DNA of 44,049 nucleotides from Coxiella sp. (in: g-proteobacteria) (lineage in GTDB: Bacteria; Pseudomonadota; Gammaproteobacteria; Coxiellales; Coxiellaceae): assembly GCA_002732805.1 (NCBI GenBank), contig NVSS01000025.1:1-44049 (forward strand), in the 5' to 3' direction. Positions within the stretch are counted from its first letter, which is position 1. Each line of letters begins with the position of its first letter. The position numbers and the translations under genes are program-made. Below, one piece after another: positions 1 through 42,213 of the stretch. The notes below the pieces were generated by a model, which worked only from the letters and a program-made list of their open reading frames with translations, was not told the origin of the DNA and made no database searches.

Positions 1-99
1 TAGCTGCTTCTATGGGTCAGATACAGAATATCATAGCTTTAGGTAATCAGCTTACTGGGCAGAATCCTGTATCTCAGGGACAGTTCATTAAGGGTAATA
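1..99. repeat. Left copy of a 99-bp exact direct repeat shared with 43951..44049 (contig self-overlap or terminal redundancy)
   Basis: Bases 1..99 (tagctgcttctatgggtcag...cattaagggtaata) are identical to 43951..44049 when compared by eye. The repeat lies inside the portal reading frame and preserves it. Confidence 0.95.
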
Positions 100-689
100 A
101 GACAGATGGCCAGTTTGATCAGGTTATGTCTAATGCAACTGGCAGAGACCAGATGGCTGCTATTCTCCTGGAGACTCAAGTATTCACTCCAATGAAACTT
201 ATAATGAAGATTGATATCTTACAGTTTCAAGGCGGCACTACTCTCTATAACAGAGATTCTCAGAAAGAAGTTGAGATAGATCCTGTACAGCTTAGGCAAG
301 CAGTCTTAAACTTCCGTATTACAGACGGCCTAATAGATGCAGATACAGTTCTGAATACAGATGCTTTCTTATCTTCTATGCAGACTCTAGCTACTAATGC
401 TAGCCTGGGAGCTGGTTATAATGTTACGCAGCTCTTCTCCTATCTGATGAAAACACAAGGAGCAGATCTAACTCCCTTTGAGAAGTCTCCTGAGCAGCAA
501 GCATTCGAACAAGCTATGGGAGCCTGGAATCAGAATCTATCTCTCCTAATAGATAAAGGAGGAGATCCAGATAAGATGCCTCCAGCTCCTTTACCTGAGC
601 AGTTCGGATATGACCCAGCTAAGAATGAACCAGCCCCTGCAGCAGCAGCCTCTTCACAAACAGCAGTACAAACTCCCGGACTAATCTAA
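1..689 (+). CDS. Portal protein, 3' part. It continues the ORF that starts at 42618; in-frame codons begin at position 3, and 1..99 duplicates the window end.
   Basis: Open frame from the window start to TAA at 687..689, in the same phase (mod 3) as the ORF that runs off the window end. The joined product is about 673 aa. It sits between TerL/endolysin and the scaffold gene. Confidence 0.8.
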   Translation, partial: AASMGQIQNIIALGNQLTGQNPVSQGQFIKGNKTDGQFDQVMSNATGRDQMAAILLETQVFTPMKLIMKIDILQFQGGTTLYNRDSQKEVEIDPVQLRQAVLNFRITDGLIDADTVLNTDAFLSSMQTLATNASLGAGYNVTQLFSYLMKTQGADLTPFEKSPEQQAFEQAMGAWNQNLSLLIDKGGDPDKMPPAPLPEQFGYDPAKNEPAPAAAASSQTAVQTPGLI

Positions 690-12218: not shown

Positions 12219-15200
12219 ATGGCAGAACCTAAGACATTCTTTAATACAGCGTATGCAGAAGCTCTCACTCGTATTAATAGCGGGGATACTTCTGAGGACT
12301 CTAGGATTCCTTCCTATATGGTACGGGCTAATACCTTGAATGTATCTAATAGGAACCAGACCTTTGAAGAGTCTGCTATAGACTTCGTAGAAGGGGTACC
12401 TAAGTTCATTGGTGCCTCTGTTATCTCTGGAGTATCTCAGCTGTATAACATAGCTCCTTCTATAGGCAATCTCTTTGGTGGTGACTTCGAAGAGCTAGAT
12501 ATAGGTGAAGTAATTGCTGACTTAGATTCAGACCTTGGACAGTTCTATAAAGAGCACCAGGAAGGTATAGATCTAGTAGGTTTCATAGCCTCCTCTATTG
12601 TGCCAGGTACAGCAGGTGTTAAGTTACTGAATGCAGGACAAAGATCTCTTACTGCTGCAATCGGCACAGGTAAACTAGGGAACGGCATGGCTAGAAGCTT
12701 TGGTCTCCTTGCTGCTCCTAATAAGCAGAAGCACCTATCTGCAGCTATCAGTGAAGTTGTTAACTCTAACTCAGCTGTCAGCCTTACTAATGGTGCAGCT
12801 TTGCGGGCTATTGGCTCAGGGTTTACTCAGAACATTCTAGAAGGTGCAGCCTTTGAAGTAGGTGTAGCTGCAACTATGTTTAACTCTCCTATTCTTGAAG
12901 CTCAGGACTTAGGAGATTTAGTAGCTAATGTAGCCTTCGGTGCAGGAGTCTTTGGTTTGGTAGGTGGAGTAGTGTCAGCGGTAGGTATTAACTCAGCTCT
13001 TAAGAAAGCTGCTACTGCTGCAGATATTGAAGCTAGACCTTGGGCTGATATCATAACTGAGACAACAGGGTTCTCTAGTGCAGCTTCTGCAGCTTCTTCC
13101 TACGAGAAGATAGCCCTGGACTTTGATCACATCAATAAGGTAGCAGGCAGACAAGTTCCTATGAATCTAGCTCCTGAGAGAAGAGCTTTCCTTACCAATC
13201 TGCAGGAGTCTACCATAGGCAAGGCTGAGCTAAGAATAAGAAAAGAACTGGGTGAAGTAGCTAACGGCGATCAAGTTGTAGCTGGCACTTTGTTTGAAGC
13301 TTTTAAGAGACAGAGCCTGGAAACTCAGCAGTCAGCTTTCATAGGTATGCAGGAAGCTACTCGCTTTGCTGAGGCTCCTAAGCTAGAGAAGCTGCTAGGT
13401 AAGCTGAAGAGAAAGATCTCTAAAGGTGATGCTACTATAGATGAGATAGATGAATACGCTAATGTAGCCAGGTCTTATACAAAGGTATGGGGCGAATCTG
13501 CAGGAGAGGTTACTACTGAGATCCCTGTTATCACCAGCTTGGTTGATACTCTTAAAGCAGGAGAGTCTATTAAGGTCTCTGCCGGTGGAGTTAAAGCTGG
13601 CTCTAAGAGCTATTCTTTTAACTCAGGGTACAATCTGAAGGTTCCTGGAAAGGGTAAGGCAGATAGAAGTACTGCTTGGAGTATGCTTACTTCTGAGCCT
13701 TTAGAAGCTAATGCTCGCTATCTGTGGGCAGCTAAGCTTCCTACCTTTAAGCCTACTGTAGCTAAGCCTATAAGAATTGGAGCAGATGATATACCTCTTC
13801 TGGAGAAAGCTATTGCAGACATTCCTGACAGCAGTATGCAGTTTGTAAAGATCGTAGCTGAAGATGGATCTCTTACTTCTGCAAGGGCTGGATCTATAAG
13901 GGAATCTATTGCTGATACAAAAGCACTGGTAGCGAACAAGCTGCATAAGTCTACTACAGAAGGTCTTGTAGGATCTGATGCAACAGTTGTAGCTAACAAG
14001 TTGCGATCTATGCTAGGGATAAGATTCTCTGTAGAAGATCTGACAAGCGGTACAATCGCAAGACTAAGAACAGTGGTCGCGGGTGAGACTAAAGGATTCT
14101 CTAAGATAGAGGTATCTGCTAAAGCTCTTACAGAACAGCCTCTCCATAAGCTGGTATCTACAATCCTGCATGAAGAAGGCCATGTTAAGTTCAATACTAT
14201 TCTTGATATAGGCGGCATACCTAAGTCTGAGTTTGCTACAGTTAAGAAAGAAATCATTGCAGCTTCTAAGAAAGCTAGACCTGGAGCTTGGAAGAATGTA
14301 CAGGAAGGTTCAGAAGACTTCCAGTATCTTAACTCTAATGCAGAACTTATGGCTGATAGCTTCTCCTTCTTTACTCAGTACCCAGGAAGAATGGCAGTAG
14401 AGGCTCCTACCTTTGAGAAGCTCTTTGGTCATCTGGTAAGACCTCTAGATAAGAAGCTGGTAGAGTCTTATTCTAAGCGTATGAATATGCTGACTCAGGA
14501 TGAGATAGCTTCTATGGTAAATGTTAAGTCTTCCTGGCTGGGAGGAGAGCAGGTTAAAGATGGAGTTCTTAAATCAGCTGACTCAGATATCTTTGCTATG
14601 CAGGATCATGCAGCACAGTATACAAAGAAGCTGGTAGATCAAGGCTCCTGGAAAGCTGATGCAGGCTTGGTAGATATGAGTGCAGTACCTCAGCATATGA
14701 AGCTTACTTATGATACTACTCCTTTTAAAGAGATCAACAATAATGTCATAGAGAACATGGCTACCATCAAAGGCTTACAGAAGCAGTACCAAGCCTCTGG
14801 TAATATAGCTTCTAAGGAAGTTCTTGGTAAGTGGTTTGATCAGCTGCCTGATATAAGCTCAGGTAAAGTTGCAGGTGATGCTAACAGATCTGGAGCAGGT
14901 GCAGGGTTTGCATCAGCAGCTTCTTCCAATTACGGCGGCCTTGCTGCTACCACTGAGTTTATTGGGTCTGTAACTTCCAGAGCTACTAGGGACTTCCAAG
15001 CTAAAACAACTGAAGTCTTAGAGCCTCTTCTGTACAAGCTTGCTAACAATCAGGAGGCAGCTGTAGAGTGGTCAGTTCTATCTCAGAGAGTAAGGAACCT
15101 AGAAGAGATCTATGGACTTAATGCAGCAGGTAATGCTCTTGAGCCTATTAAGCTTATACGCTGGAAGCAAGCTGTAGCAGAAGTTGAACAGGCTAATGCA

Positions 15201-17780
15201 GCAGCAGCTAAAGCAGCAATAGCAGCAGGGAAGGAAGTACCAACTCCAGCTCTAGCTCCTACACGACCTGTCCTGTCTAACCCTGATACTCCTCTGCTCT
15301 TAGAGATTAAGAACTCAGAAGTTAGTTCTTTGGCTCGCGCCCATATAGAAACTAATGGAGCTAGGACTTCTTCTCTCAGCACTATTCGTTCAGCTCAGGG
15401 AGCAGTGTATCAGAGAGATCCTGGGTCCTTCTATCCTATTCCTATTAACCCTAAAGACTTCCCTCACTTTGCTATGGTAACTGATTCCTCAGTAACAGCT
15501 ACTGGTCATCACACTACCTTATATGCAACAACTGCTGAGGATCTAGAGAGACAGATCTCTAAGCTGAAAACTAATCCGCACCTTAAGATTAGGACTAAGA
15601 AAGAAGCTGAAGATTACTTCTCCTCTATAGGACAGTGGGAATATGAGAAGACTCTGAGTGATAACTACTTGGACATTACTGCTAAGAGATCTGGAGTATC
15701 TGCTCCTTTCTTACCTGCTACTGATCCTGGAAAGATTACTGCTGATCTTCTGAACTGGCATATGGCAAGAGACTCTGGCCTTGTAAGAGAAGCTGTAACT
15801 GCTAAGTATGAAGTACAGTTCCAAGAGCTTAAACGCTTAGGTGATGAGTATACTAATGTAGCTACCTCTAAGTTCTCAATAGATTCTTTGAATCGCTTTG
15901 CAGATGACTCAGTTAAGAATCCTTACAATGATTACATAAAAACAGCCTTAGCTGTAAGGAAGAATTCAGACTATCCTTTCTGGGTTAATGTCAATACTAT
16001 GGCTGATGAAGCTATCAGTAAGATGTACCGGAAAGTATCTGGAGCAGTTGAGTCTGCTAGAACTGAAGATGAGCTGCTAGCAGTTAATGGTATGCTAGAA
16101 CAGGCAGGTTATAAAGGAGCTCATTATGATGCTGCTATGGAAGTCTTCGCTAATGCTGGTCCAGCGCAAGGAGTACTCACCAAGGCTATACAGAAAGGTA
16201 ACAGTGTTCTTGCTACAATAGTTCTTCGCCTGGATACTCTTAACTCAGTGAACAATGCAGTAAGTGCTAATGTTCTTCTGGGAGCAGAGACTAAGGCAGT
16301 AATACGAGCTATCTCTCAGGGAGATGAAGAAGCTGTAGGTGCTTTGGCTGCTCTTACTAGGATCAAAGTCCCAGGAACAGATAGCACTGTCTTCTCTCCT
16401 ACTAAGCTTATAGCCAACTCAGTTCGTCGCTTTAATGCTGTAGGTGCAGACATGCAGTTCTATAAGGATATAGGAGTTGTTACTTCTATCTCTGATCAGT
16501 ACAAGACTGCTTTGGATGCTCTGACTTATACAGGTAAAGATGTAAAAGCTTGGAGTAGCAGGATAGATGGAGTACAGAAGAATCTAGCTAACCTCGCTAA
16601 CACTGGTGAGAAGTGGACTGGTAACAAGCTGGCTGAAGAGTTCAACAGGTTCGTAGCTGCAGATGTTATGAAGCAAATGACAGATGTAGCAGTAAGCAGG
16701 AATCTGATGTCTTCTAAAGAGCAGCTTGCTTATATCAATACTTTCGTAAACCGGACTCAGGGTAACTACCTAGCTTCTCAGAGACCTATGATGTTCCAAG
16801 GAGCTATAGGACAAGCTATAGGCCTATTCCAAACTTACCAGTTTAATCTTATGCAGCAGCTTCTAAGACATGTAGGAGAAGGTCATGCTAAAGATACTAT
16901 GACTCTGCTAGCCTTGCAAGGAACTATACATGGTATGAATGGCTTACCTGGATTCAATGCTATTAACACTTCTCTCTTAGGTAATGCTTCTGGTAACAAA
17001 GAACACAGAGATGCCTTTGATGCAGTGTATGGAATAGCTGGTAAGGAAGCTGGTGATTGGCTTATGTATGGCATGGCATCTAATGCCTTAGGTTTAATAG
17101 ATCCAGACCTAAAGATTAACCTCTATACTCGGGGTGATATTAACCCTAGGCATGTTACCATTGTACCTACCAATCCTGTAGATGTTCCTATCTACGCTGC
17201 ATCAACTAAGTTCTTTGCTAATCTTTTCACTACAGCTAAGAAGCTTGCAGCAGGCGGTGATATAAGTACTACTCTCCTGCAAGGTATAGAGCACAATGGC
17301 TTAAGTAGACCTCTGGCTGGCTTGGCTCAAACCTTACAAGGTATTGCCAATCCTGTTAATGCTTCTTACAGTACTTCTAATAGAGGTAATGTTATCGCTT
17401 CTAATGATCTTCTTTCTCTGGCAAATCTAGGTAGAATGGTTGGCGGCAAGCCTCTTGATGAAGCTATTGCTATTGATGCTGTATATAGGTATAAGGCTTA
17501 TGGTTTAGCGGATGCTAAGAAGAGGGCAGTTCTAGGACAAGCAATTAAGACTACGCTTATAGCAGGACAGAATCCTACCTTAGAACAGATTGAAGGTTTC
17601 GCTGAAGGTTATGCTGCTGCGGGAGGTAGATCGGAGGAGTTTAATAAGTGGTTCACTCAGTTGAATAGGACTACTAACTTGTCTCAAGCTAATAAGATCT
17701 CACAATCTCTTAGTAGTCCTTTCACTCAAAGTATGCAAAGGTTAATGGGAGGTAGAGAGTTTAGGGACTTTACAGAGTAG
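12219..17780 (+). CDS. Giant internal virion / ejection protein C candidate (1853 aa) with an embedded HEXXH zinc-metallopeptidase-like motif
   Basis: Largest ORF, and last in the structural arm. Gly/Ala-rich hydrophobic segments in the first ~260 aa. HEEGH at aa 651-655 (nt 14169..14183), with a downstream E-LMADSF (E709, nt 14343..14345). Confidence 0.55.
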   Translation: MAEPKTFFNTAYAEALTRINSGDTSEDSRIPSYMVRANTLNVSNRNQTFEESAIDFVEGVPKFIGASVISGVSQLYNIAPSIGNLFGGDFEELDIGEVIADLDSDLGQFYKEHQEGIDLVGFIASSIVPGTAGVKLLNAGQRSLTAAIGTGKLGNGMARSFGLLAAPNKQKHLSAAISEVVNSNSAVSLTNGAALRAIGSGFTQNILEGAAFEVGVAATMFNSPILEAQDLGDLVANVAFGAGVFGLVGGVVSAVGINSALKKAATAADIEARPWADIITETTGFSSAASAASSYEKIALDFDHINKVAGRQVPMNLAPERRAFLTNLQESTIGKAELRIRKELGEVANGDQVVAGTLFEAFKRQSLETQQSAFIGMQEATRFAEAPKLEKLLGKLKRKISKGDATIDEIDEYANVARSYTKVWGESAGEVTTEIPVITSLVDTLKAGESIKVSAGGVKAGSKSYSFNSGYNLKVPGKGKADRSTAWSMLTSEPLEANARYLWAAKLPTFKPTVAKPIRIGADDIPLLEKAIADIPDSSMQFVKIVAEDGSLTSARAGSIRESIADTKALVANKLHKSTTEGLVGSDATVVANKLRSMLGIRFSVEDLTSGTIARLRTVVAGETKGFSKIEVSAKALTEQPLHKLVSTILHEEGHVKFNTILDIGGIPKSEFATVKKEIIAASKKARPGAWKNVQEGSEDFQYLNSNAELMADSFSFFTQYPGRMAVEAPTFEKLFGHLVRPLDKKLVESYSKRMNMLTQDEIASMVNVKSSWLGGEQVKDGVLKSADSDIFAMQDHAAQYTKKLVDQGSWKADAGLVDMSAVPQHMKLTYDTTPFKEINNNVIENMATIKGLQKQYQASGNIASKEVLGKWFDQLPDISSGKVAGDANRSGAGAGFASAASSNYGGLAATTEFIGSVTSRATRDFQAKTTEVLEPLLYKLANNQEAAVEWSVLSQRVRNLEEIYGLNAAGNALEPIKLIRWKQAVAEVEQANAAAAKAAIAAGKEVPTPALAPTRPVLSNPDTPLLLEIKNSEVSSLARAHIETNGARTSSLSTIRSAQGAVYQRDPGSFYPIPINPKDFPHFAMVTDSSVTATGHHTTLYATTAEDLERQISKLKTNPHLKIRTKKEAEDYFSSIGQWEYEKTLSDNYLDITAKRSGVSAPFLPATDPGKITADLLNWHMARDSGLVREAVTAKYEVQFQELKRLGDEYTNVATSKFSIDSLNRFADDSVKNPYNDYIKTALAVRKNSDYPFWVNVNTMADEAISKMYRKVSGAVESARTEDELLAVNGMLEQAGYKGAHYDAAMEVFANAGPAQGVLTKAIQKGNSVLATIVLRLDTLNSVNNAVSANVLLGAETKAVIRAISQGDEEAVGALAALTRIKVPGTDSTVFSPTKLIANSVRRFNAVGADMQFYKDIGVVTSISDQYKTALDALTYTGKDVKAWSSRIDGVQKNLANLANTGEKWTGNKLAEEFNRFVAADVMKQMTDVAVSRNLMSSKEQLAYINTFVNRTQGNYLASQRPMMFQGAIGQAIGLFQTYQFNLMQQLLRHVGEGHAKDTMTLLALQGTIHGMNGLPGFNAINTSLLGNASGNKEHRDAFDAVYGIAGKEAGDWLMYGMASNALGLIDPDLKINLYTRGDINPRHVTIVPTNPVDVPIYAASTKFFANLFTTAKKLAAGGDISTTLLQGIEHNGLSRPLAGLAQTLQGIANPVNASYSTSNRGNVIASNDLLSLANLGRMVGGKPLDEAIAIDAVYRYKAYGLADAKKRAVLGQAIKTTLIAGQNPTLEQIEGFAEGYAAAGGRSEEFNKWFTQLNRTTNLSQANKISQSLSSPFTQSMQRLMGGREFRDFTE

Positions 17781-18555: not shown

Positions 18556-18806
18556 GATACTATTATAACTCCTTTCTTTTTAAGTTTCCAAAAGAGCTTA
18601 GGATACAAGTGCTCCAGCTCCATTGGCATATAGTCCCCATTCATGATCACTCCTACATAAGCTGCTACTTCTCCTAGCCAAGCTCCGTGATCATCTTTAG
18701 GGAGAGGTCCCAAGAGATTCAAGAGTACAGGATGGTTAGCAACTTCTTTGTTAAGAGCTATCCGCGCCTCACTCCACACCTCTAGGTTCTTTCTAGTTGT
18801 TCCCAT
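18552..18806 (-). CDS. Hypothetical protein (84 aa from the internal ATG)
   Basis: The ATG at 18806 is preceded by GGAGGA-N8, so it is preferred over the upstream ATG at 18848. It overlaps the DHH gene stop by 14 nt and the dNMP kinase start by 4 nt. Confidence 0.65.
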   Translation of the reverse strand: MGTTRKNLEVWSEARIALNKEVANHPVLLNLLGPLPKDDHGAWLGEVAAYVGVIMNGDYMPMELEHLYPKLFWKLKKKGVIIVS

Positions 18807-19866
18807 CTTTAGATTCCTCCTCTGCGTATGCTCCTCTCTTAAATACATTATCTAGGATACCTCCAGCTTCTATGTAGCTAACCTCAAATCCTGCAGCATT
18901 CTTATGCCCTCCTCCTCCAAAGATTTTAGCTATAGCAGAAACATCTGTATCTCCTACGCTTCTTAGGGAGAATGTGAATCTTCCAGGTTCGCCTACTAAA
19001 GTCTTACCTAATGCAGTGAACTCATCCATATCAAATAGGAGACAAGGAAGTTGGTGCTTCTCTGCTACATAATTACCTACAGCAGAAGTAAACTCTACAG
19101 GACAGGTAGCAGCTAGCATCTTATGCCCAGCTATGGTTACTGGTAGTGTCTCCTTGCCAAAGAACTCTACCTTCTTCTCATGCTCAGCTAGCAATCTGTT
19201 CCCTGCTATTACTATCCTGCTCCTAGTATCATGCTGCTCAAGATCTGCTGCTGCTCTATCCCAAGCAGAGAAAGTTTTAGCTAACTGCCTCAGGTACATG
19301 TTAATAGCTTTAGTCTCTGAGTACTCAAACTGATACAGGTCATAATCCTGTACATACTCTACTAGAGTTTCGCCATGATTAGGTAGCATACCCCCAAAGA
19401 ACTCCGCACAGATGCCTGCTCCGCTAAGGGCATTAACTAATACTATAGCTGTATTCAGCTCAGGTATCTTTTTAAAGAGCTTAGAGTCTTTATCAACTAC
19501 ATACCCTTTCTCTGCATACATCTCAAAGGCAGTCTTGTGGTGATCTAGGATCATTATAGCTATCTCAGGACCAGTGGGTGCTTCCTGTAGCTTCTCTATC
19601 CAAGCTAAAGATACAGAGAAGTCTACTATGTATAGGTTAGTATACATCCCTACAAGGATCATATTGTGTAGATCAGTCAGACTCTTCTCATTGTAAGTCA
19701 CACCTAAGCAGTCTATAATTGCATTAGGTCTAGCCTTCTCTAAGCTCCTAGCTGTAACCCAAGCAGATGTAAAGCCATCTATGCAAGGATCATGATAAGC
19801 TATTAGGATTCTTTCTTTTGCTACTGAATCTTTCTCTTCATTAGGGGTTTCTGTTTCTATGCTCAT
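18793..19866 (-). CDS. DHH/DHHA1-family phosphoesterase (NrnA/RecJ-like, 357 aa)
   Basis: Motif I AYHDPCIDGFTSAW, motif II LYIVDFS, motif III ILDHHKT, and DHHA1 motif FGGGGHKNAAGF. Confidence 0.8.
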   Translation of the reverse strand: MSIETETPNEEKDSVAKERILIAYHDPCIDGFTSAWVTARSLEKARPNAIIDCLGVTYNEKSLTDLHNMILVGMYTNLYIVDFSVSLAWIEKLQEAPTGPEIAIMILDHHKTAFEMYAEKGYVVDKDSKLFKKIPELNTAIVLVNALSGAGICAEFFGGMLPNHGETLVEYVQDYDLYQFEYSETKAINMYLRQLAKTFSAWDRAAADLEQHDTRSRIVIAGNRLLAEHEKKVEFFGKETLPVTIAGHKMLAATCPVEFTSAVGNYVAEKHQLPCLLFDMDEFTALGKTLVGEPGRFTFSLRSVGDTDVSAIAKIFGGGGHKNAAGFEVSYIEAGGILDNVFKRGAYAEEESKDGNN

Positions 19867-24248: not shown

Positions 24249-24689
24249 CTAGACAACAGCAATCTCTTTCACCTGGAGATAGATCTTATCAGGATCATTC
24301 TTATCCTTGCGGAGAGAAGTCATGATAATACATTCTACATCATTGCACTCTTCTACAGTAGATCTAATAGAAGCAGTACCTAAGGCAGCTTGCAAAGGCA
24401 TTGCACACTTCTTAAGATTACCTCTGCCGAATTCATTATCTAACATGAATAAGATAGAGCACTTAGACTCTGCTTTAGGAGCTTCAGCTTGTGCATCAGC
24501 CAGTTCCACAGCTTCTAGATAGCTGAAAGCTAGTTCAATAGCATCAGGAGCTTCGCCTTCATTAGTCTTAATGTTCTTGAAAGCTAAGGTAGCTAATACC
24601 TTGTGAGCACCTACGGGATAAGGCTCGAACGAAGGCAAGTCATCAAGGTCATCTAAGGTAGAGTCTAGTAGATCATCAAAATTTGACAT
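24249..24689 (-). CDS. DUF669-like protein, possible ssDNA-binding partner of the AAA_24 ATPase (146 aa)
   Basis: Acidic N-terminus followed by F-E-P-Y-P-V-G-A-H, resembling the DUF669 pattern f.plP.G.Y. Lies in the usual AAA_24 neighbourhood. Strong RBS, with a terminator downstream. Confidence 0.4.
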   Translation of the reverse strand: MSNFDDLLDSTLDDLDDLPSFEPYPVGAHKVLATLAFKNIKTNEGEAPDAIELAFSYLEAVELADAQAEAPKAESKCSILFMLDNEFGRGNLKKCAMPLQAALGTASIRSTVEECNDVECIIMTSLRKDKNDPDKIYLQVKEIAVV

Positions 24690-24760: not shown

Positions 24761-25264
24761 TTATAGTGTCACTTGCAAGTCTTTCCACTTCTTATCTTTC
24801 ATCTTCTCACTCATCTCCTCACGGAGAATTCTTTGATACCTCTGCCACTTAGGTACTAGGTCTCTTTCCATGAACTTATGTCCATGATAGTATAAGCCTG
24901 TATGAGACAGGAGGTATTCTTCTTTAAGGTAGCGGTCCATATAAGACTCAAAAGGTTTTGGCCTAGAGAGAAGGCTATCTAAGATCCAAACCTGGCCATG
25001 ATCCACAACTCTAAGTACCATGTGCATCTCACCTTTGTATCTACCTCTAAGAAGGCGCCCTGCTATAAGCTGTATGTTCTGATCCTTGTAACCTTTCAAG
25101 AGCAGTGCCTGTCTCATAGCTAGCTTTAGATCCTCGCAGTCTGCGCCTTTCTTAATAGACTCTGCATAAGTCTGCCAGATATCTTTACCTGGAAGCTCTC
25201 TCTTATAAGAGATATCAGACATAACCATTTCGAATGCTGAGGTTATCTTCTTTGGTGCTCGCAT
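24761..25264 (-). CDS. Transglutaminase-like cysteine protease, BTLCP / LapG family (Peptidase C93-like, 167 aa)
   Basis: KDIW...GADCEDLKLAMRQALLLKGY...EMHMVLRVV...QVWILDS matches the BTLCP pattern D.W...G.GDCEDya.aK..L...G...HaVL.v...vLDn. Putative triad is C43/H81/D96. No N-terminal signal peptide. Confidence 0.7.
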   Translation of the reverse strand: MRAPKKITSAFEMVMSDISYKRELPGKDIWQTYAESIKKGADCEDLKLAMRQALLLKGYKDQNIQLIAGRLLRGRYKGEMHMVLRVVDHGQVWILDSLLSRPKPFESYMDRYLKEEYLLSHTGLYYHGHKFMERDLVPKWQRYQRILREEMSEKMKDKKWKDLQVTL

Positions 25265-25273
25265 AGATTACTC

Positions 25274-26245
25274 CTATTTCTTCTTTTGATTCTTAAGCTT
25301 AGCTAGGATGGCCGCAGTACTAGCCTTGACAGGACTCTTAGATACAGAGCTTCCAGTTTTGGTAGCTGTAACTGAGGGTGCGCCAGAGGAAGCTGCTATC
25401 CTTTGCGCATACAACTCAGGTTTAAATATTGCTAGGAGAGAAGCATCATCTCCACCGTCTTCTATCTTAACATCAGACCTAGAGCCTGTCAAGATATTGG
25501 TGGCGTATGTAGTAGAAGATGCAAAGACATGCTTCTTATTCTTTCTCTCACAGTATACAACATGATCAAAGAACTTAGCTACATTCCTAGAATAGTTCCT
25601 AGTACCACCTACAGGAGTAAGAGACTTCTTCTTATTCTCTCCTTCTATCTCCTGCTCATGAGAGATCACAATAACATTGTAACCTGCTTGCTGTATCTCA
25701 GATAGGAATACATCCAGAAGCTTAGCTAGATTACCCCAGTCATCATAGTTCAGCTTGTAATCATCAGGCTGCTTCTTAGTTATGTGAGAGATAATAGAGT
25801 TAGATAGCTGAGTAAGAGAATCAAATACAACTATCTTCTCAGGTCCCATCTCAGGGATATCTAGATCTATGAAGAAGCTAGCATGTATATCTCCGTGCTC
25901 TTCTTTAGGAGCATCTTTGCATACCTTAACTTCTTCTCTTGTGCAGATCATGCAGCCTACCTTACTGTGTACTTCACAGATAGAGACTGGACCTTTAACC
26001 ATCTTAAGACAGGTCTCTGCTGCTATAGGATAGCTCTTAGTATCCCTTATGTTTACAATCTCAATCCTTTGCTTCCAAGTTTCAGGAAGCTTATGTAAGA
26101 CTGAGTGCCCATTCTCTAAGTCTACCCAGATGAGATCATAGAACTCTGCAAGCTTACCTACCAGTTCTGATTTACCAGTCTTAGGTGCTCCGTATACTAT
26201 GATCCTGTGGGTAGAGGATTCTTTTAATGTGTTTAGTTTAGCCAT
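25274..26245 (-). CDS. AAA_24 / Sak4-like RecA-fold ATPase with a Cys-rich insertion (323 aa)
   Basis: Walker A IIVYGAPKTGKSELV followed by LIWVDLENG, and Walker B-like IVVFDSLT. Insertion of form CX7CX2CX7C (C90, C98, C101, C109; nt 25919..25978). Confidence 0.65.
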   Translation of the reverse strand: MAKLNTLKESSTHRIIVYGAPKTGKSELVGKLAEFYDLIWVDLENGHSVLHKLPETWKQRIEIVNIRDTKSYPIAAETCLKMVKGPVSICEVHSKVGCMICTREEVKVCKDAPKEEHGDIHASFFIDLDIPEMGPEKIVVFDSLTQLSNSIISHITKKQPDDYKLNYDDWGNLAKLLDVFLSEIQQAGYNVIVISHEQEIEGENKKKSLTPVGGTRNYSRNVAKFFDHVVYCERKNKKHVFASSTTYATNILTGSRSDVKIEDGGDDASLLAIFKPELYAQRIAASSGAPSVTATKTGSSVSKSPVKASTAAILAKLKNQKKK

Positions 26246-26561
26246 CTTCTGTCTCTAGCTCCTTCTGTTTCTCTGAAAACAAACTGTCTTTAAGCTTGCC
26301 TATGAACTTGTCTGCTGCCTGCTCTAAAGAACTGTCAGACTCCTTTGGTGGGCGCTTCTTTCTCAATGTAGATTCTCTAGCTAACCATGTACCATCGGAC
26401 CTATTAGGATTAAGGTCTACTGGCACTAAGATAATATAGTCTCCTTTTTGCTCAGATTTCATAGCTCTGGTCTTAGGATCTGCTATACCTACTACTTCGC
26501 AGTCATACCACTTACCTAAGTTACGTGCCTCACATAACTCACCTACTGTAAACTTGTTCAT
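26238..26561 (-). CDS. Hypothetical protein (107 aa), small beta-rich N-domain plus basic/acidic tail
   Basis: ORF with RBS AAGGAG-N9-ATG. Overlaps the AAA_24 start by 8 nt. Confidence 0.7.
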   Translation of the reverse strand: MNKFTVGELCEARNLGKWYDCEVVGIADPKTRAMKSEQKGDYIILVPVDLNPNRSDGTWLARESTLRKKRPPKESDSSLEQAADKFIGKLKDSLFSEKQKELETEDG

Positions 26562-26588: not shown

Positions 26589-26981
26589 TTAAAAGGGTAT
26601 GTCATCATCGAAGTCTAATATCTCTTGAGCTTCCTCTTCTGGTACTTCTAGCTGCTCTCCTAGATAGACCTTGATACTAGCAGTAATCTCTAGGACATCA
26701 TTATCTCTCATCCAAGAGAAGTACTCTTTATCTGTATCTATTACTTCCTTGAGAGTATCATGCCTATGCTTACCAAAACCTACAGGATTATCTAGGTACA
26801 GATGCCACTTACCTTCTTCCTTATAATTCTGAGGAGAAGCAAAGCTGCTAGGGCTAACTATATGTGGCCCAAAGTTACCATTAGAAGTAGGTACATAACC
26901 TGAAGCTGTAGATACTGAATCAGTGTCTACCATATAGGCTTGCCAGTCCTCATAATCTTCGCTTGTGAAGTAGTCTGCCAT
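26589..26981 (-). CDS. DUF3820/ExoX-C-like domain protein ending in an SSB-type C-terminal tip DFDDDIPF (130 aa)
   Basis: GFGKHRHDTLKEVIDTDKEYFSWMRDN resembles the FGKykG..l.ev...d..Yl.W pattern. The last 8 residues are identical to the E. coli SSB C-terminus, checked codon by codon at 26592..26615. Confidence 0.6.
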   Translation of the reverse strand: MADYFTSEDYEDWQAYMVDTDSVSTASGYVPTSNGNFGPHIVSPSSFASPQNYKEEGKWHLYLDNPVGFGKHRHDTLKEVIDTDKEYFSWMRDNDVLEITASIKVYLGEQLEVPEEEAQEILDFDDDIPF

Positions 26982-27006
26982 GATCTTATCCTTCCCTTAA
27001 AGGGTC

Positions 27007-28107
27007 TTAAAGTCCTGCCTTTCTTATCTGAGTTTCTACTAGCTCATCAAAGTCTATCTTAAAGGTATACCTAGCTTCATCCTTAGCAATCTTATCTAAG
27101 ATCTTTTGCGTAAGGGGCTTAACTAAGTTCTCTGTCTGTAAGGTACACAAGCCTAGGTACTCGCACTCTCGAAAGAAGTCGAAGCAGCTTTCTCCGTGCA
27201 TAGGATATACCTCATAAGATTCATACAGCTCAATCATTTGAGTATCAATCATTAGCTCTTGCAGCCAGAGAGCTCTTTGAAGCAAGCTCTTCTGGAATGG
27301 GAGTTCTTTGTACTCATAGCTCTTAGTCTCATATACCAGGTACAGAACTACATAAGAAGAGAGCTCAGGGAACAGGAGATCTAAGATAACTGAGTAGCCT
27401 AAAGCCTGGCCTGAGTTCTTGAATGTAGCAGGGTTAGCTATAGCAGAGGAAGTCTTAGCTTCTAAAACCATTATCTCCCCTGTATCTTTGTGCCTAAGAA
27501 CTGCATCTACGAAACCTCTGTAAGCAAAGCCATTAGAGAAGTTAATTACAAATGCCAGTTCTACTGCTGGAAGCAAAGGACCAGTAGGTTCTGCCGGATC
27601 AGGATAATATACCAGCTCATACTCATCTAAGAATCCATTCTCTCTTAAAGCTATGAACTTCTGTACTGCAAACATAGCTAGCCAGAAAGACTTCTTCTGC
27701 TTAGGATTGTCATCTAATAGATCTGTATCCCAGCTTAGGAATGTATCCATGAAGATCTGAGTAGGAGTCTTACCTTCCAGAGTAGATTGCACTCCTACAC
27801 CTACTGCTGTACCATAAGCAAATGTAACATTCTGTCCTATCTGAGCCAGCTCTTCTAAAGGAGTCTCATCAGAAGATAAGCGATAGAGTTGATACTTCCT
27901 AGGGCACTTGTGTAAGGTAGTTCTTGAAGAGTGAGAGAGAAGCTTAAGCCTAGGATCTATCTCTCCTGGCTCTAAAGTTATTACCTGTATCAGTTCTTGC
28001 TCCCCTTCTTCTGGGAGATCTTCACTGGTATCTGCGTAATCTTCTAAGGGCACTAAGCCGTCTAGCTCTGCATCTAAGAAGTCATCCATGTCTTGTTTAA
28101 TAGTCAT
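27007..28107 (-). CDS. PD-(D/E)XK nuclease, Cas4/RecB-like with a probable Fe-S cluster (366 aa)
   Basis: N-terminal Cys in HKCPRKYQLY. Core motif FVDAV...IMVLEAKTS (D...E-x-K), plus QALGYS. C-terminal Cys triad CFDFFRECEYLGLC. Confidence 0.75.
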   Translation of the reverse strand: MTIKQDMDDFLDAELDGLVPLEDYADTSEDLPEEGEQELIQVITLEPGEIDPRLKLLSHSSRTTLHKCPRKYQLYRLSSDETPLEELAQIGQNVTFAYGTAVGVGVQSTLEGKTPTQIFMDTFLSWDTDLLDDNPKQKKSFWLAMFAVQKFIALRENGFLDEYELVYYPDPAEPTGPLLPAVELAFVINFSNGFAYRGFVDAVLRHKDTGEIMVLEAKTSSAIANPATFKNSGQALGYSVILDLLFPELSSYVVLYLVYETKSYEYKELPFQKSLLQRALWLQELMIDTQMIELYESYEVYPMHGESCFDFFRECEYLGLCTLQTENLVKPLTQKILDKIAKDEARYTFKIDFDELVETQIRKAGL

Positions 28108-40444: not shown

Positions 40445-40624
40445 ATGCGTATTGTAAGAACTTCTCATATTGTACCAGTAACTTATTCTAAGCAGGAAAT
40501 CTCTACAGCTAGAACTATCCTAGATCGTCTGGTAGCTAGAAGGAAGACTCTGGCTAGTACAGCAGAACCTACAGCTTCTACTTCTTATACTAAGATCTTA
40601 AGCAAACAAGTAGAGGACCTATAG
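40445..40624 (+). CDS. Small hypothetical protein (59 aa from the ATG at 40445)
   Basis: GAAGGA-N10-ATG. Its stop TAG (40622..40624) shares one base with the GTG start of TerL. Confidence 0.45.
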   Translation: MRIVRTSHIVPVTYSKQEISTARTILDRLVARRKTLASTAEPTASTSYTKILSKQVEDL

Positions 40625-42213
40625 TGGCTAAGAAGAAGACACTACTAGGAGCCTTAGGTGGGACTCCAGAAAGCAAGAACACCCTACCTGCTACTTTTAG
40701 AGAAGACTCCGCTTCTGCTAACTCTGCTGTATCTGCAGAAGAAGCTATACAAGAAGTAGGCGCTGACTCTGAGCAGATACAAGAATTAGCTAAGCAAGAG
40801 CTGGACTTCTTAGCTGCTCTCCTTATGCCTTTAATTGTAACCTATGGCTACCCTCCTGTATTCCAAGAGATCTACAGGTGGCTTATAGACTTCTCAGATA
40901 AGAAGCGTACATTCCCGCAGCTAGCAATTGGCTTGCCTCGAGGGTTTGGTAAGACTACTCTTATGAAGATCTATATAATCTACTGCATCCTCTTTACTGA
41001 TGCTAAGTTCATTCTTGTAATCTCTTCTACAGCTTCTCTAGCAGAGAATATCTTAGCTGATATTGTAGACATGTTAGAAGAGCCTAATATTAAGTCAGTC
41101 TTTGGTGACTGGAAACTAGGTGTAGAGAAAGATACACAGAAGCTTAAGAAGTTTGGCTTCAGAGGAAGGAATATAATACTAGCTGCCATTGGTGCAGGGT
41201 CTTCTCTACGAGGACTTAATATTAAAAACCAGCGCCCGGATGTTATGCTATTTGAAGACTTCCAAACTAAGGAAGCTTCTGAGTCAGATGTAGAGTCTCA
41301 TAAACTGGAGACATGGATGGTAGGTACAGCAATGAAAGCTAAGTCTCCTCATGGCTGTGTCTTCATATTTGTAGCTAACATGTATCCTAATAAGAACTCC
41401 ATTCTGCGTAAGCTTAAACAGAACCCTAACTGGATTAAGTTTATAGCTGGCGGAATCAACTCAGAAGGGGAGTCTCTCTGGGAAGAGTTGCAGCCTATAA
41501 CGCAACTGCTTAAAGAATTTGAGAATGACCTAGCTATGGGTCACCCTGAGATCTTCTATTCAGAAGTTCTTAATGATGAGAATGTATCAGCTAACAATTT
41601 AATAGATCTGTCTAAGCTGCCTACAGTTCCTTACGAGGCTGGAGATATAGCAGGCGGAAACTTCATAATCATAGATCCTTCTTCAGATAAGCTAGGGTCA
41701 GATGCTGTGTCTATAGGTTACTTTGAGATACATGATGCTAAGCCTATCCTGATGGAACTGGAAGAAGGTAGATTCTCTCCTGGTGATACTATTCTAAAAG
41801 CTCTAGGGTTTGCTCTTAAGCACAATTGCAGATTGATAGTATGTGAAGGTACAGCATTCCAGTACTCTCTAATCTACTGGTTTGATCAGATCTGTCTGCA
41901 GAAGGGAATAATGGGAATAGAAGCAGTCCCTATATATCCTGGCATCAGTTCTAAGAACTCGCGCATTCTCACTATGTTTAAGTCCTATGCAGCAGGAGAA
42001 CTGTATTGCATAGGAGATGCTAGATTAGCTTTGCACTTGCAGATAACTCAGTTTAATCCTTTAAGAAGAGATAACACTGATGGCATATTAGATCTTATGA
42101 CTTATGCTCCTAGAGTGCTCTTAGAGTTTGGAGAGTATGTTATAGCAGGCTCAATTATAGAAGCCCAAGAGTACGAAGGGATGGAAGTAGAAGAGTTTAA
42201 TTCAGCATTCTAG
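40624..42213 (+). CDS. Terminase large subunit (529 aa, GTG start)
   Basis: Walker A GLPRGFGKTT, Walker B DVMLFEDFQ, and a C-terminal nuclease-type FIIIDPSSD. Lies adjacent to the portal gene. Confidence 0.85.
   Translation: MAKKKTLLGALGGTPESKNTLPATFREDSASANSAVSAEEAIQEVGADSEQIQELAKQELDFLAALLMPLIVTYGYPPVFQEIYRWLIDFSDKKRTFPQLAIGLPRGFGKTTLMKIYIIYCILFTDAKFILVISSTASLAENILADIVDMLEEPNIKSVFGDWKLGVEKDTQKLKKFGFRGRNIILAAIGAGSSLRGLNIKNQRPDVMLFEDFQTKEASESDVESHKLETWMVGTAMKAKSPHGCVFIFVANMYPNKNSILRKLKQNPNWIKFIAGGINSEGESLWEELQPITQLLKEFENDLAMGHPEIFYSEVLNDENVSANNLIDLSKLPTVPYEAGDIAGGNFIIIDPSSDKLGSDAVSIGYFEIHDAKPILMELEEGRFSPGDTILKALGFALKHNCRLIVCEGTAFQYSLIYWFDQICLQKGIMGIEAVPIYPGISSKNSRILTMFKSYAAGELYCIGDARLALHLQITQFNPLRRDNTDGILDLMTYAPRVLLEFGEYVIAGSIIEAQEYEGMEVEEFNSAF

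Follow-up and report, generated by a model that had tools for sequence, protein, structure and literature searches.

Why does a small phage protein end in exactly the peptide by which bacterial SSB, the protein that binds single-stranded DNA, docks onto its partners, when the rest of it is not an SSB? The question is raised by ORF130, a 130-amino-acid (aa) open reading frame (ORF) on the minus strand of contig NVSS01000025.1 (GenBank assembly GCA_002732805.1, filed as Coxiella sp.), which we analyzed at its full length of 44,049 nucleotides (nt) and refer to as the window. The product terminates ...EEAQEILDFDDDIPF immediately before the stop codon. An earlier note on this DNA had read the last eight residues as the C-terminus of Escherichia coli SSB and the body as something other than an oligonucleotide/oligosaccharide-binding (OB) fold, and both readings held in the comparisons below. 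The scaffold of ORF130 is not an SSB, and we tentatively read the protein as a non-DNA-binding accessory adaptor of the phage's exonuclease/Sak4 recombination-replication module. ORF130 and its parts are the following:

26589..26981, minus strand: ORF130, 130 aa, ATG start, stop codon at 26589-26591 (ORF list, sequence and Pfam ExoX-like_C match)
26989..26993, minus strand: Shine-Dalgarno-like AAGGA, 7 nt 5' of the ORF130 ATG (read from the sequence)
26832..26981, minus strand: acidic, aromatic-rich N-terminal region, aa 1-50 (net charge -7; predicted local distance difference test score, pLDDT, ~51-58)
26646..26831, minus strand: folded ExoX-like_C domain, aa 51-112 (AlphaFold2 pLDDT 88-94; Pfam PF20600)
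26700-26777, minus strand: Pfam core of ExoX-like_C, aa 69-94 (PF20600 match)
26616..26645, minus strand: acidic linker VPEEEAQEIL, aa 113-122 (alignments with tipless homologs; pLDDT ~62)
26592..26615, minus strand: SSB-type C-terminal tip DFDDDIPF, aa 123-130 (same final 8 residues as in E. coli K-12 SSB)

The tip of ORF130 is that of bacterial SSB

We translated E. coli K-12 SSB from NC_000913 and found that it ends PPMDFDDDIPF. When this protein was compared with ORF130 by BLASTP, only LDFDDDIPF and MDFDDDIPF aligned, with 8/9 residues identical, including all of the last 8. ORF130 has the acidic tip ending in [IL]PF at a free C-terminus that is one mark of bacterial SSBs (DFDDDIPF directly before the stop), and the free ...DDDIPF-COOH that an SSB-tip ligand requires in its sequence is present. 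Across all six frames of the window, this is the sole acidic-[ILVM]PF C-terminus. By chance, a protein would match such a terminal 8-mer exactly with a probability of about 20^-8, and the identity of the ORF130 tip is far beyond chance. Together with the linker, the tip forms a C-terminal extension (aa 113-130, net charge -8) that is missing from tipless relatives.

The body is a small acidic ExoX-like_C protein

The earlier note had pointed to an FGKH...EYFSWM motif of the DUF3820/ExoX C-terminal kind, and a profile search supported this: the motif belongs to a match to PF20600 (ExoX-like_C, DUF3820-related) at 31.6 bits, above the gathering cut-off of 26.5 (E = 1.1e-7) and over positions 3-28 of the 30-position profile, which places ORF130 in the family by hidden Markov model score. 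In an alignment of 62 sequences, F69 and G70 never vary, and conservation reaches 90% or more at K71, V80, Y87 and W90. The conserved FGK[HY]...V...Y..W core and the small alpha/beta fold described next likewise assign ORF130 to ExoX-like_C. AlphaFold2 was run with the 62-sequence alignment, replacing a single-sequence run (pLDDT 36), and modelled aa 51-112 as a beta-hairpin and three helices, a small alpha/beta domain; aa 1-50 and 113-130 had low confidence. The N-terminal 50 residues are probably disordered, as their charge and model confidence would fit and as the note had surmised.

The model shows no beta-barrel, and a Foldseek search with it against the PDB found no neighbour and no OB fold. 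The best structural matches in BFVD were QSregVF/ExoX-like_C phage proteins, and these were weak (top E = 0.038, probability 0.99). No SSB Pfam family matched ORF130 at E <= 1 and no DUF669 Pfam match was found; PHROG had no family for it, and the PDB searched by sequence had nothing for ORF130 or for its last 20 residues. The N-terminal OB-fold core of bacterial SSBs (PF00436 type) is absent from ORF130. Homology to the DUF669-type SSB of phage HK620 is likewise absent, as a jackhmmer search from the HK620 SSB over the ORFs of the window and of all collected loci misses ORF130. Because neither fold nor homology places it there, ORF130 lies outside the SSB and DUF669 families.

ORF130 is strongly acidic (isoelectric point 4.1, net charge -20), so DNA binding is unlikely. 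ExoX-like_C domains themselves average a net charge of about -4 each, and a "mini-SSB" with ExoX-like_C as its DNA binder was ruled out on the acidity of the domain family. We infer that ExoX-like_C binds proteins. Standalone ExoX-like_C proteins of 53-140 aa are common in phages, and in cells the domain is joined to nucleases, to RusA in one fusion protein (P0028) and to ExoX by name. Residues 1-167 of E. coli ExoX retain nuclease activity without the ExoX-like_C part, and the full-length protein could not be crystallized (PMC3753628). Binding of MutL by the ExoX C-terminus was considered and dropped, as that structure paper gives it no support (0 mentions in PMC3753628).

ORF130 as a gene

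An artefact, arising by chance, by chimeric assembly or by a frameshift, would account for full-length ORF130 being a singleton in 5.8 billion clusters plus 1.84 billion representatives. Against this stand a Pfam domain that exceeds a curated cut-off, a confidently predicted fold, a ribosome-binding site, tight operon packing (25 nt from the stop codon of the exonuclease gene to the ORF130 start) and guanine-plus-cytosine (GC) content that is uniform across the area, with no anomaly. A site scan found no sigma-70-like promoter or terminator between ORF130 and the neighbouring genes. The identical protein with the same neighbours is recorded on 3 contigs of public assemblies. Likeness to ssb genes at the DNA level is limited to the tip codons: in a blastn comparison with 200 tip-encoding loci, similarity was restricted to the 21-29 nt that encode the tip, and there is therefore no sign of a chimeric junction. 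The artefact reading is already effectively refuted. That the tail was recently captured from an ssb gene was also considered and rejected, as the DNA similarity lies only at the tip codons and the GC content is normal.

The tip is an add-on that recurs on other ExoX-like_C proteins

We found no match to ORF130 among 50,697 GenBank phages by DNA or tblastn, a word-indexed search of the 5.8 billion clusters returned only ORF130 itself, and a pattern search of IMG/VR recovered no relative. HMMER over the 1.84 billion representatives gave 42 non-self matches, of which 41 span the ExoX-like_C domain only; in the remaining one, query aa 3-36 are matched, at a borderline E = 7.3e-4, by the repetitive protein P0106, and P0106 aside the N-terminal region is unmatched in that set. 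The closest database relatives, P0068 and P0070, have the same architecture and are 46% identical over aa 43-107 and 50-110; they end ...YLED and ...YLDDQEK and carry no tip.

Through the exonuclease encoded upstream of ORF130, we recovered 40 related IMG/VR loci, of which 6 encode an ExoX-like_C protein. Five of these six are tipless and terminate where the ORF130 linker begins. Four of the tipless five lie between the exonuclease and Sak4 genes (3 directly after the exonuclease; the one in L012 is separated from it by a 61-aa ORF) and one lies directly after Sak4. The sixth (L029 5398-5667), between w146 and PolA, has a proline-rich linker and ends ...DDDDIPF. All 7 ExoX-like_C genes of the phage lineage fall within the exonuclease-Sak4-w146-PolA block, 5 of them between exonuclease and Sak4, and 4 of those 5 directly after the exonuclease. 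As judged from these alignments, the ORF130 tail is a 15-19-aa add-on, missing from all nearest relatives.

Among ~220 sampled PF20600 proteins, SSB-like tips were found on P0042 (...YDFDIPF), P0081 (...DYSDMPF), P0108 (of the L029 type) and P0210 (...DDELDDIPF). The last of these sampling searches used a query that favoured tails; in the samples free of this bias, 2/106 carried such a tip, and ~98% of sampled family members were without an SSB-like tip. The linkers of the tip-bearing proteins are unrelated to one another, and the tip was therefore joined to ExoX-like_C several times. By sequence, SSB-like tips are assigned to at least three or four further, separate ExoX-like_C lineages. In the survey of tail conservation in related phages that the earlier note had proposed, the nearest relatives are tipless, and the tips recur on separate lineages.

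FDDDIPF tips in viruses and bacteria

We collected ORFs ending in FDDDIPF-stop from IMG/VR viral contigs (118 among the matches listed, L046-L165) and ORFs ending in DFDDDIPF-stop from bacterial genomes (likewise 118 among the matches listed); the counts of this census refer to those matches. In the viral sample, 56/118 are canonical OB-fold SSBs and 17/118 are HK620-type SSBs (by jackhmmer seeded with the HK620 SSB); the other 45 fall into ~26 clusters. In the bacterial sample, canonical SSBs make up 104/118, and most of the rest are truncated SSBs or proteins that resemble SSB. These bacterial matches trace to 119 loci, almost all in Pseudomonadota and mostly in Gammaproteobacteria, which is consistent with the suggestion of the note that the IPF ending hints at a proteobacterial-type host SSB. 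The same hint agrees with the hosts of the nearest cultured-phage PolA proteins, given below.

The remaining viral scaffolds are diverse. They include superfamily 2 helicases with ResIII and Helicase_C (L103 11283-13016, minus strand; L131), a CAP12/Pycsar-type TIR protein (L058 4873-5748, plus strand) and 73-75-aa helical proteins (L061 2980-3207, minus strand; L146). None of the 118 viral ORFs has an ExoX-like_C domain. Many of the unassigned viral clusters may be unrecognized SSB folds. Among these matches, the tip marks SSB in cells and sits on many scaffolds in phages, which suggests that grafting it onto varied proteins is a general, largely undescribed device in phages. As SSB tips are common on viral proteins other than canonical SSBs, ORF130 is less singular: it is a clear non-SSB case, not one unique in kind. 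In the literature searched, we did not find a description of a non-SSB phage protein with a host SSB tip, which does not prove that the idea is new.

The phage genome and its recombination block

The window is a phage genome whose virion genes are on the plus strand and whose replication block is on the minus strand. The plus-strand genes include a portal fragment, a major head protein, a terminase and a 1853-aa virion protein (12219-17780), whose only match is a PHROG of unknown function. The match of the 225-aa ORF at 12-689 (plus strand) to a portal PHROG is limited to the C-terminal part of that PHROG, so that the window begins inside a portal-like gene, and the large terminase lies near the opposite end (40624-42213, plus strand); the cut portal-like gene at the start and the terminase near the other end fit a circularly permuted, near-complete genome of ~44 kb. 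There was no nucleotide match of the window in GenBank phages. Its PolA is 29-34% identical to those of cultured podoviruses of Aeromonas, Polaromonas and Pseudomonas, the nearest among cultured phages.

The related loci share a core gene order: Dda-like helicase, w254, w81, w96, w134, PD-(D/E)XK exonuclease, a variable slot, Sak4-like AAA_24, w146, PolA and primase-helicase. The slot holds 0-3 small genes per locus and is occupied in the window by ORF130 and an orphan 107-aa gene. The neighbours of ORF130 that matter here are:

27007..28107, minus strand: PD-(D/E)XK (Cas4-like) exonuclease, 366 aa (Pfam PDDEXK_1 and PHROG exonuclease; present in the 40 related viral loci)
26238..26561, minus strand: orphan 107-aa gene (without homologs across the 40 related loci, and outside the Pfam and PHROG families)
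25274..26245, minus strand: Sak4-like (AAA_24) single-strand annealing protein, 323 aa (AAA_24 E = 2e-14; PHROG 124 E = 1.3e-18)
24249..24689, minus strand: w146, 146-aa core protein adjoining Sak4, a candidate divergent SSB (alignment of 31 homologs)

PHROG 124 is labelled "Sak4-like ssDNA annealing protein" (ssDNA, single-stranded DNA), and the gene lies two genes downstream of ORF130. The 107-aa orphan has a faint chromo-like match and a basic/acidic tail. A further window-specific gene encodes a 167-aa protein (24761-25264, minus strand) with no homolog in the 40 related loci; its match to BTLCP (Peptidase_C93, transglutaminase-like cysteine protease) scores 25.7 bits and so stays below the cut-off of 27.

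In related phages the slot is most often filled by a second small-protein family, "TDKAILL...W[FIL]PKS", which is unrelated to ExoX-like_C, has no Pfam family and is tipless in that position. In more distant relatives, members of this family are encoded upstream of the exonuclease and carry a proline-rich linker and an SSB-like tip (...DMDDDIPY or ...NDDVPF). The members located are:

With tip: L031 6460-6804, L034 6274-6645, L032 3281-3580, L033 4279-4578
Tipless: L004 3939-4349, L005 8993-9595, L007 7820-8221, L008 1084-1509
Tipless: L011 8963-9415, L015 2994-3737, L019 5987-6322, L021 7662-8015

An unrelated phage, on a 68.5-kb Logan contig (SRR33465416; L166 3427-7188), has two ExoX-like_C genes encoding 171 aa and 64 aa. 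There, a single gene upstream of an AAA_24 (Sak4-like) gene is ExoX-like_C's position, and a DUF669 gene follows AAA_24; the DUF669 product ends ...PKVSFD and lacks a classic tip. ExoX-like_C is thus associated with Sak4 modules independently of the window lineage.

Candidate partners encoded by the phage

For Sak4 there is a precedent. The Sak4 of HK620 needs the last six residues (NDYPPF) of the neighbouring DUF669-type SSB for binding to SSB-coated ssDNA and for its stimulation, and ~80% of sak4 genes adjoin an ssb gene (PMC5928155). By analogy, the Sak4-like annealase that the phage itself encodes deserves serious consideration as a partner of the ORF130 tip.

The gene of w146 occupies the usual site of Sak4-associated SSBs. 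Hints that w146 is itself an SSB are weak: DUF669 was matched in 2/21 members (E = 0.066) and the SSB family PHROG 378 in 1/21 (E = 0.002), comparison with the HK620 SSB was not significant by hhalign or jackhmmer, and a w146 profile had no match among PDB chains. It may be a new divergent SSB family or no SSB at all. It ends ...KEIAVV and has no C-terminal tip, as seen in the alignment of 31 homologs.

Both w146 and the exonuclease carry an acidic motif at the other end of the protein. In w146 it is LLDxTLDDLxDLPxF (aa 4-23), present in 34/34 homologs; in the exonuclease it is an acidic leader (FLD..LD, aa 8-25), MDDFLDAELDGLVPLEDY, whose [LIFM]LD motif is present in 34/39 full-length homologs (L001-L040). 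Seven other core families scored 0-2 each for such an N-terminal motif. The w146 segment DDLDDLPSF resembles DFDDDIPF yet is N-terminal, and the ORF130 tail contains ILDFDDD. Through these N-terminal peptides, the exonuclease and w146 may both dock on a single hub, for example Sak4.

The phage also encodes a DHH/DHHA1 phosphoesterase (18793-19866, minus strand) with a weak RecJ-like PHROG match. Since bacterial RecJ binds the SSB C-terminus, as a passage of PMC4846377 describes, this DHH protein is another candidate receptor of the tip.

An adaptor and its alternatives

We tentatively favour, at somewhat less than even odds, the reading of ORF130 as an accessory adaptor that does not bind DNA and serves the exonuclease/Sak4 module. 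In order from the N-terminus, the adaptor would have an acidic region that is probably disordered, the small and likewise acidic ExoX-like_C domain, a 10-residue acidic linker and a grafted tip of host type. Its free C-terminal ...DDDIPF would insert into pockets that normally receive the SSB tip; such pockets are described in passages of PMC10018359 and PMC7145534 for many genome-maintenance proteins. Their owners could be host SSB-interacting proteins, the Sak4-like annealase or the RecJ-like DHH protein. The ExoX-like_C domain would meanwhile hold another partner, for which the product of the adjoining upstream gene, the PD-(D/E)XK exonuclease, is the most plausible candidate. ORF130 might in this way couple end-processing to tip-dependent partners and do in trans what the SSB tail does on ssDNA. 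Each of these binding steps is one that we infer from what was observed directly, namely the architecture, the non-SSB fold, the acidity, the added and recurring tip and the genomic setting. Several observations weigh against the adaptor. In the locus region covered, 34/40 related loci are without an ExoX-like_C gene, so that ORF130 is dispensable for the core exonuclease/Sak4 reaction, and most are without any tip-bearing gene; elsewhere, ExoX-like_C genes stand in mixed early-gene contexts, not always near nucleases. The ORF130 linker is far shorter than the disordered linker of SSB, which may limit its reach. As the window Sak4-like protein has no BLASTP similarity to HK620 Sak4, the HK620 precedent transfers only by family-level inference. 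A literature search found no functional study of ExoX-like_C, DUF3820 or PF20600.

The acidity, the accessory status and the host-exact tip would be explained equally well by a decoy, which we regard as possible and as nearly as likely as the adaptor. ORF130 would then be a soluble mimic of the host SSB tail, expressed early and highly, that fills the SSB-tip pockets of host proteins. Its targets might be ExoI, RecJ, RecQ, PriA, RecO, chi, UDG or SSB-dependent defence factors; the effect could be to protect phage ssDNA and ends or to shut down host replication restart and repair, and ExoX-like_C might supply solubility, avidity or extra specificity. A decoy would suit an exact host-type sequence on a strongly acidic protein that is unlikely to bind DNA and whose gene is accessory and occupies a hypervariable slot, as host-interference genes typically do. 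The tips of related phages vary (IPF, IPY, VPF), as expected if each matches the SSB of its own host, and among the matches listed FDDDIPF sits on many viral scaffolds and is nearly confined to SSB in bacteria. Yet SSB-tip peptides bind their partners with micromolar affinity, and a single tip per small protein would face competition from SSB, which is abundant and tetrameric. A second binding function is suggested by the conserved folded domain and its consistent place in the recombination block, and most relatives do without a gene of this type. In a broader form, which we hold to be about as possible, ORF130 would be one instance of a widespread phage strategy that uses the SSB tip as a portable module on non-SSB scaffolds to hijack or jam the SSB hub, and would act as a targeted inhibitor or hijacker. 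Perhaps its tip finds host SSB-dependent nucleases, restart or defence factors, and ExoX-like_C neutralizes or redirects them. It is improbable that the tail acts only within the phage system or molecule, with no role for host proteins, either folding back on its own domain or driving head-to-tail self-association, or mimicking the acidic LLD..LD..LPxF peptides at the N-termini of the exonuclease and w146 and competing for the same phage hub. The lineage-conserved motif common to those two proteins, and its likeness to the tail, speak for such a role. Exact identity to the host tip over 8 residues exceeds what a phage-internal motif needs; fold-back is electrostatically unfavourable because domain and tail are both acidic; and SSB-tip pockets use the free C-terminal carboxylate, which N-terminal motifs do not have. 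More unlikely still is an SSB of novel fold, in which ORF130 binds ssDNA through ExoX-like_C or its N-terminal region and serves as the functional SSB of the phage with an ordinary tail. No canonical SSB was recognized among the scanned ORFs of the window, and several unrelated phage SSB families, the HK620 type included, bear the same tip. The protein has no OB fold, however, its charge and isoelectric point are those of an acidic protein down to the domain itself, an SSB would be core to the lineage rather than missing from 34/40 loci in the region covered, and a conserved candidate SSB, w146, already adjoins Sak4.

Bacterial genome maintenance has its central docking signal in the SSB tip, which has been proposed as a target for antibiotics. 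If the proposed action of ORF130 is correct, a soluble protein that does not bind DNA and carries an exact copy of the tip would be a ready-made probe or inhibitor of the SSB hub, and phages would address that hub without making an SSB, which would be a new point of attack. The locus would also give a functional lead for ExoX-like_C/DUF3820, as a protein-binding module tied to nucleases and the Sak4 recombination machinery. Because annealase activity depends on SSB-tip compatibility, a tip-bearing helper could matter for moving phage recombineering between hosts.

Comparison with known systems

ORF130 shares with the C-terminus of bacterial SSB its last 8 residues and a free C-terminus after an acidic stretch, and the exact DFDDDIPF-stop is typical of Pseudomonadota SSBs among the matches listed. 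It differs from bacterial SSB in having no OB fold, no long Gly/Pro/Gln-rich linker and no sign of a tetramer-forming core sequence, and in its charge of -20. With the ExoX-like_C/DUF3820/QSregVF_b families (PF20600, PF12843) it shares a score above the cut-off and the F-G-K...V...Y..W positions, to which it adds a unique N-terminal region, the linker and the tip. The other viral FDDDIPF proteins have the same exact tip on non-canonical scaffolds; among the matches listed, none of them combines it with ExoX-like_C.

In the T7 replisome, the helicase-primase gp4 and the SSB gp2.5 carry similar acidic C-terminal tails, which are phage-specific and target the phage polymerase. The likeness is that of a non-SSB phage replication protein with the same kind of docking tail as an SSB; the ORF130 tail differs in copying the host SSB tip, on a small protein without an enzymatic domain. 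The acidic tail of gp2.5 contacts the polymerase, and the template for placing gp2.5 was a DTDF peptide that represents the gp4 tail in PDB 6P7E (PMC12339929). Like the Sak4 and DUF669-type SSB pair of HK620 (Hutinet et al. 2018, PMC5928155), the window encodes a tip-bearing protein beside a Sak4-family annealase. The HK620 partner is a proven ssDNA-binding protein, whereas ORF130 is unlikely to be one and is accessory in its lineage, and the Sak4-like protein of the window is very divergent from that of HK620. The dependence of HK620 Sak4 on an SSB tail and the tails of T7 gp4 and gp2.5 are the nearest documented precedents, and by analogy with them ORF130 resembles an SSB tail offered in trans.

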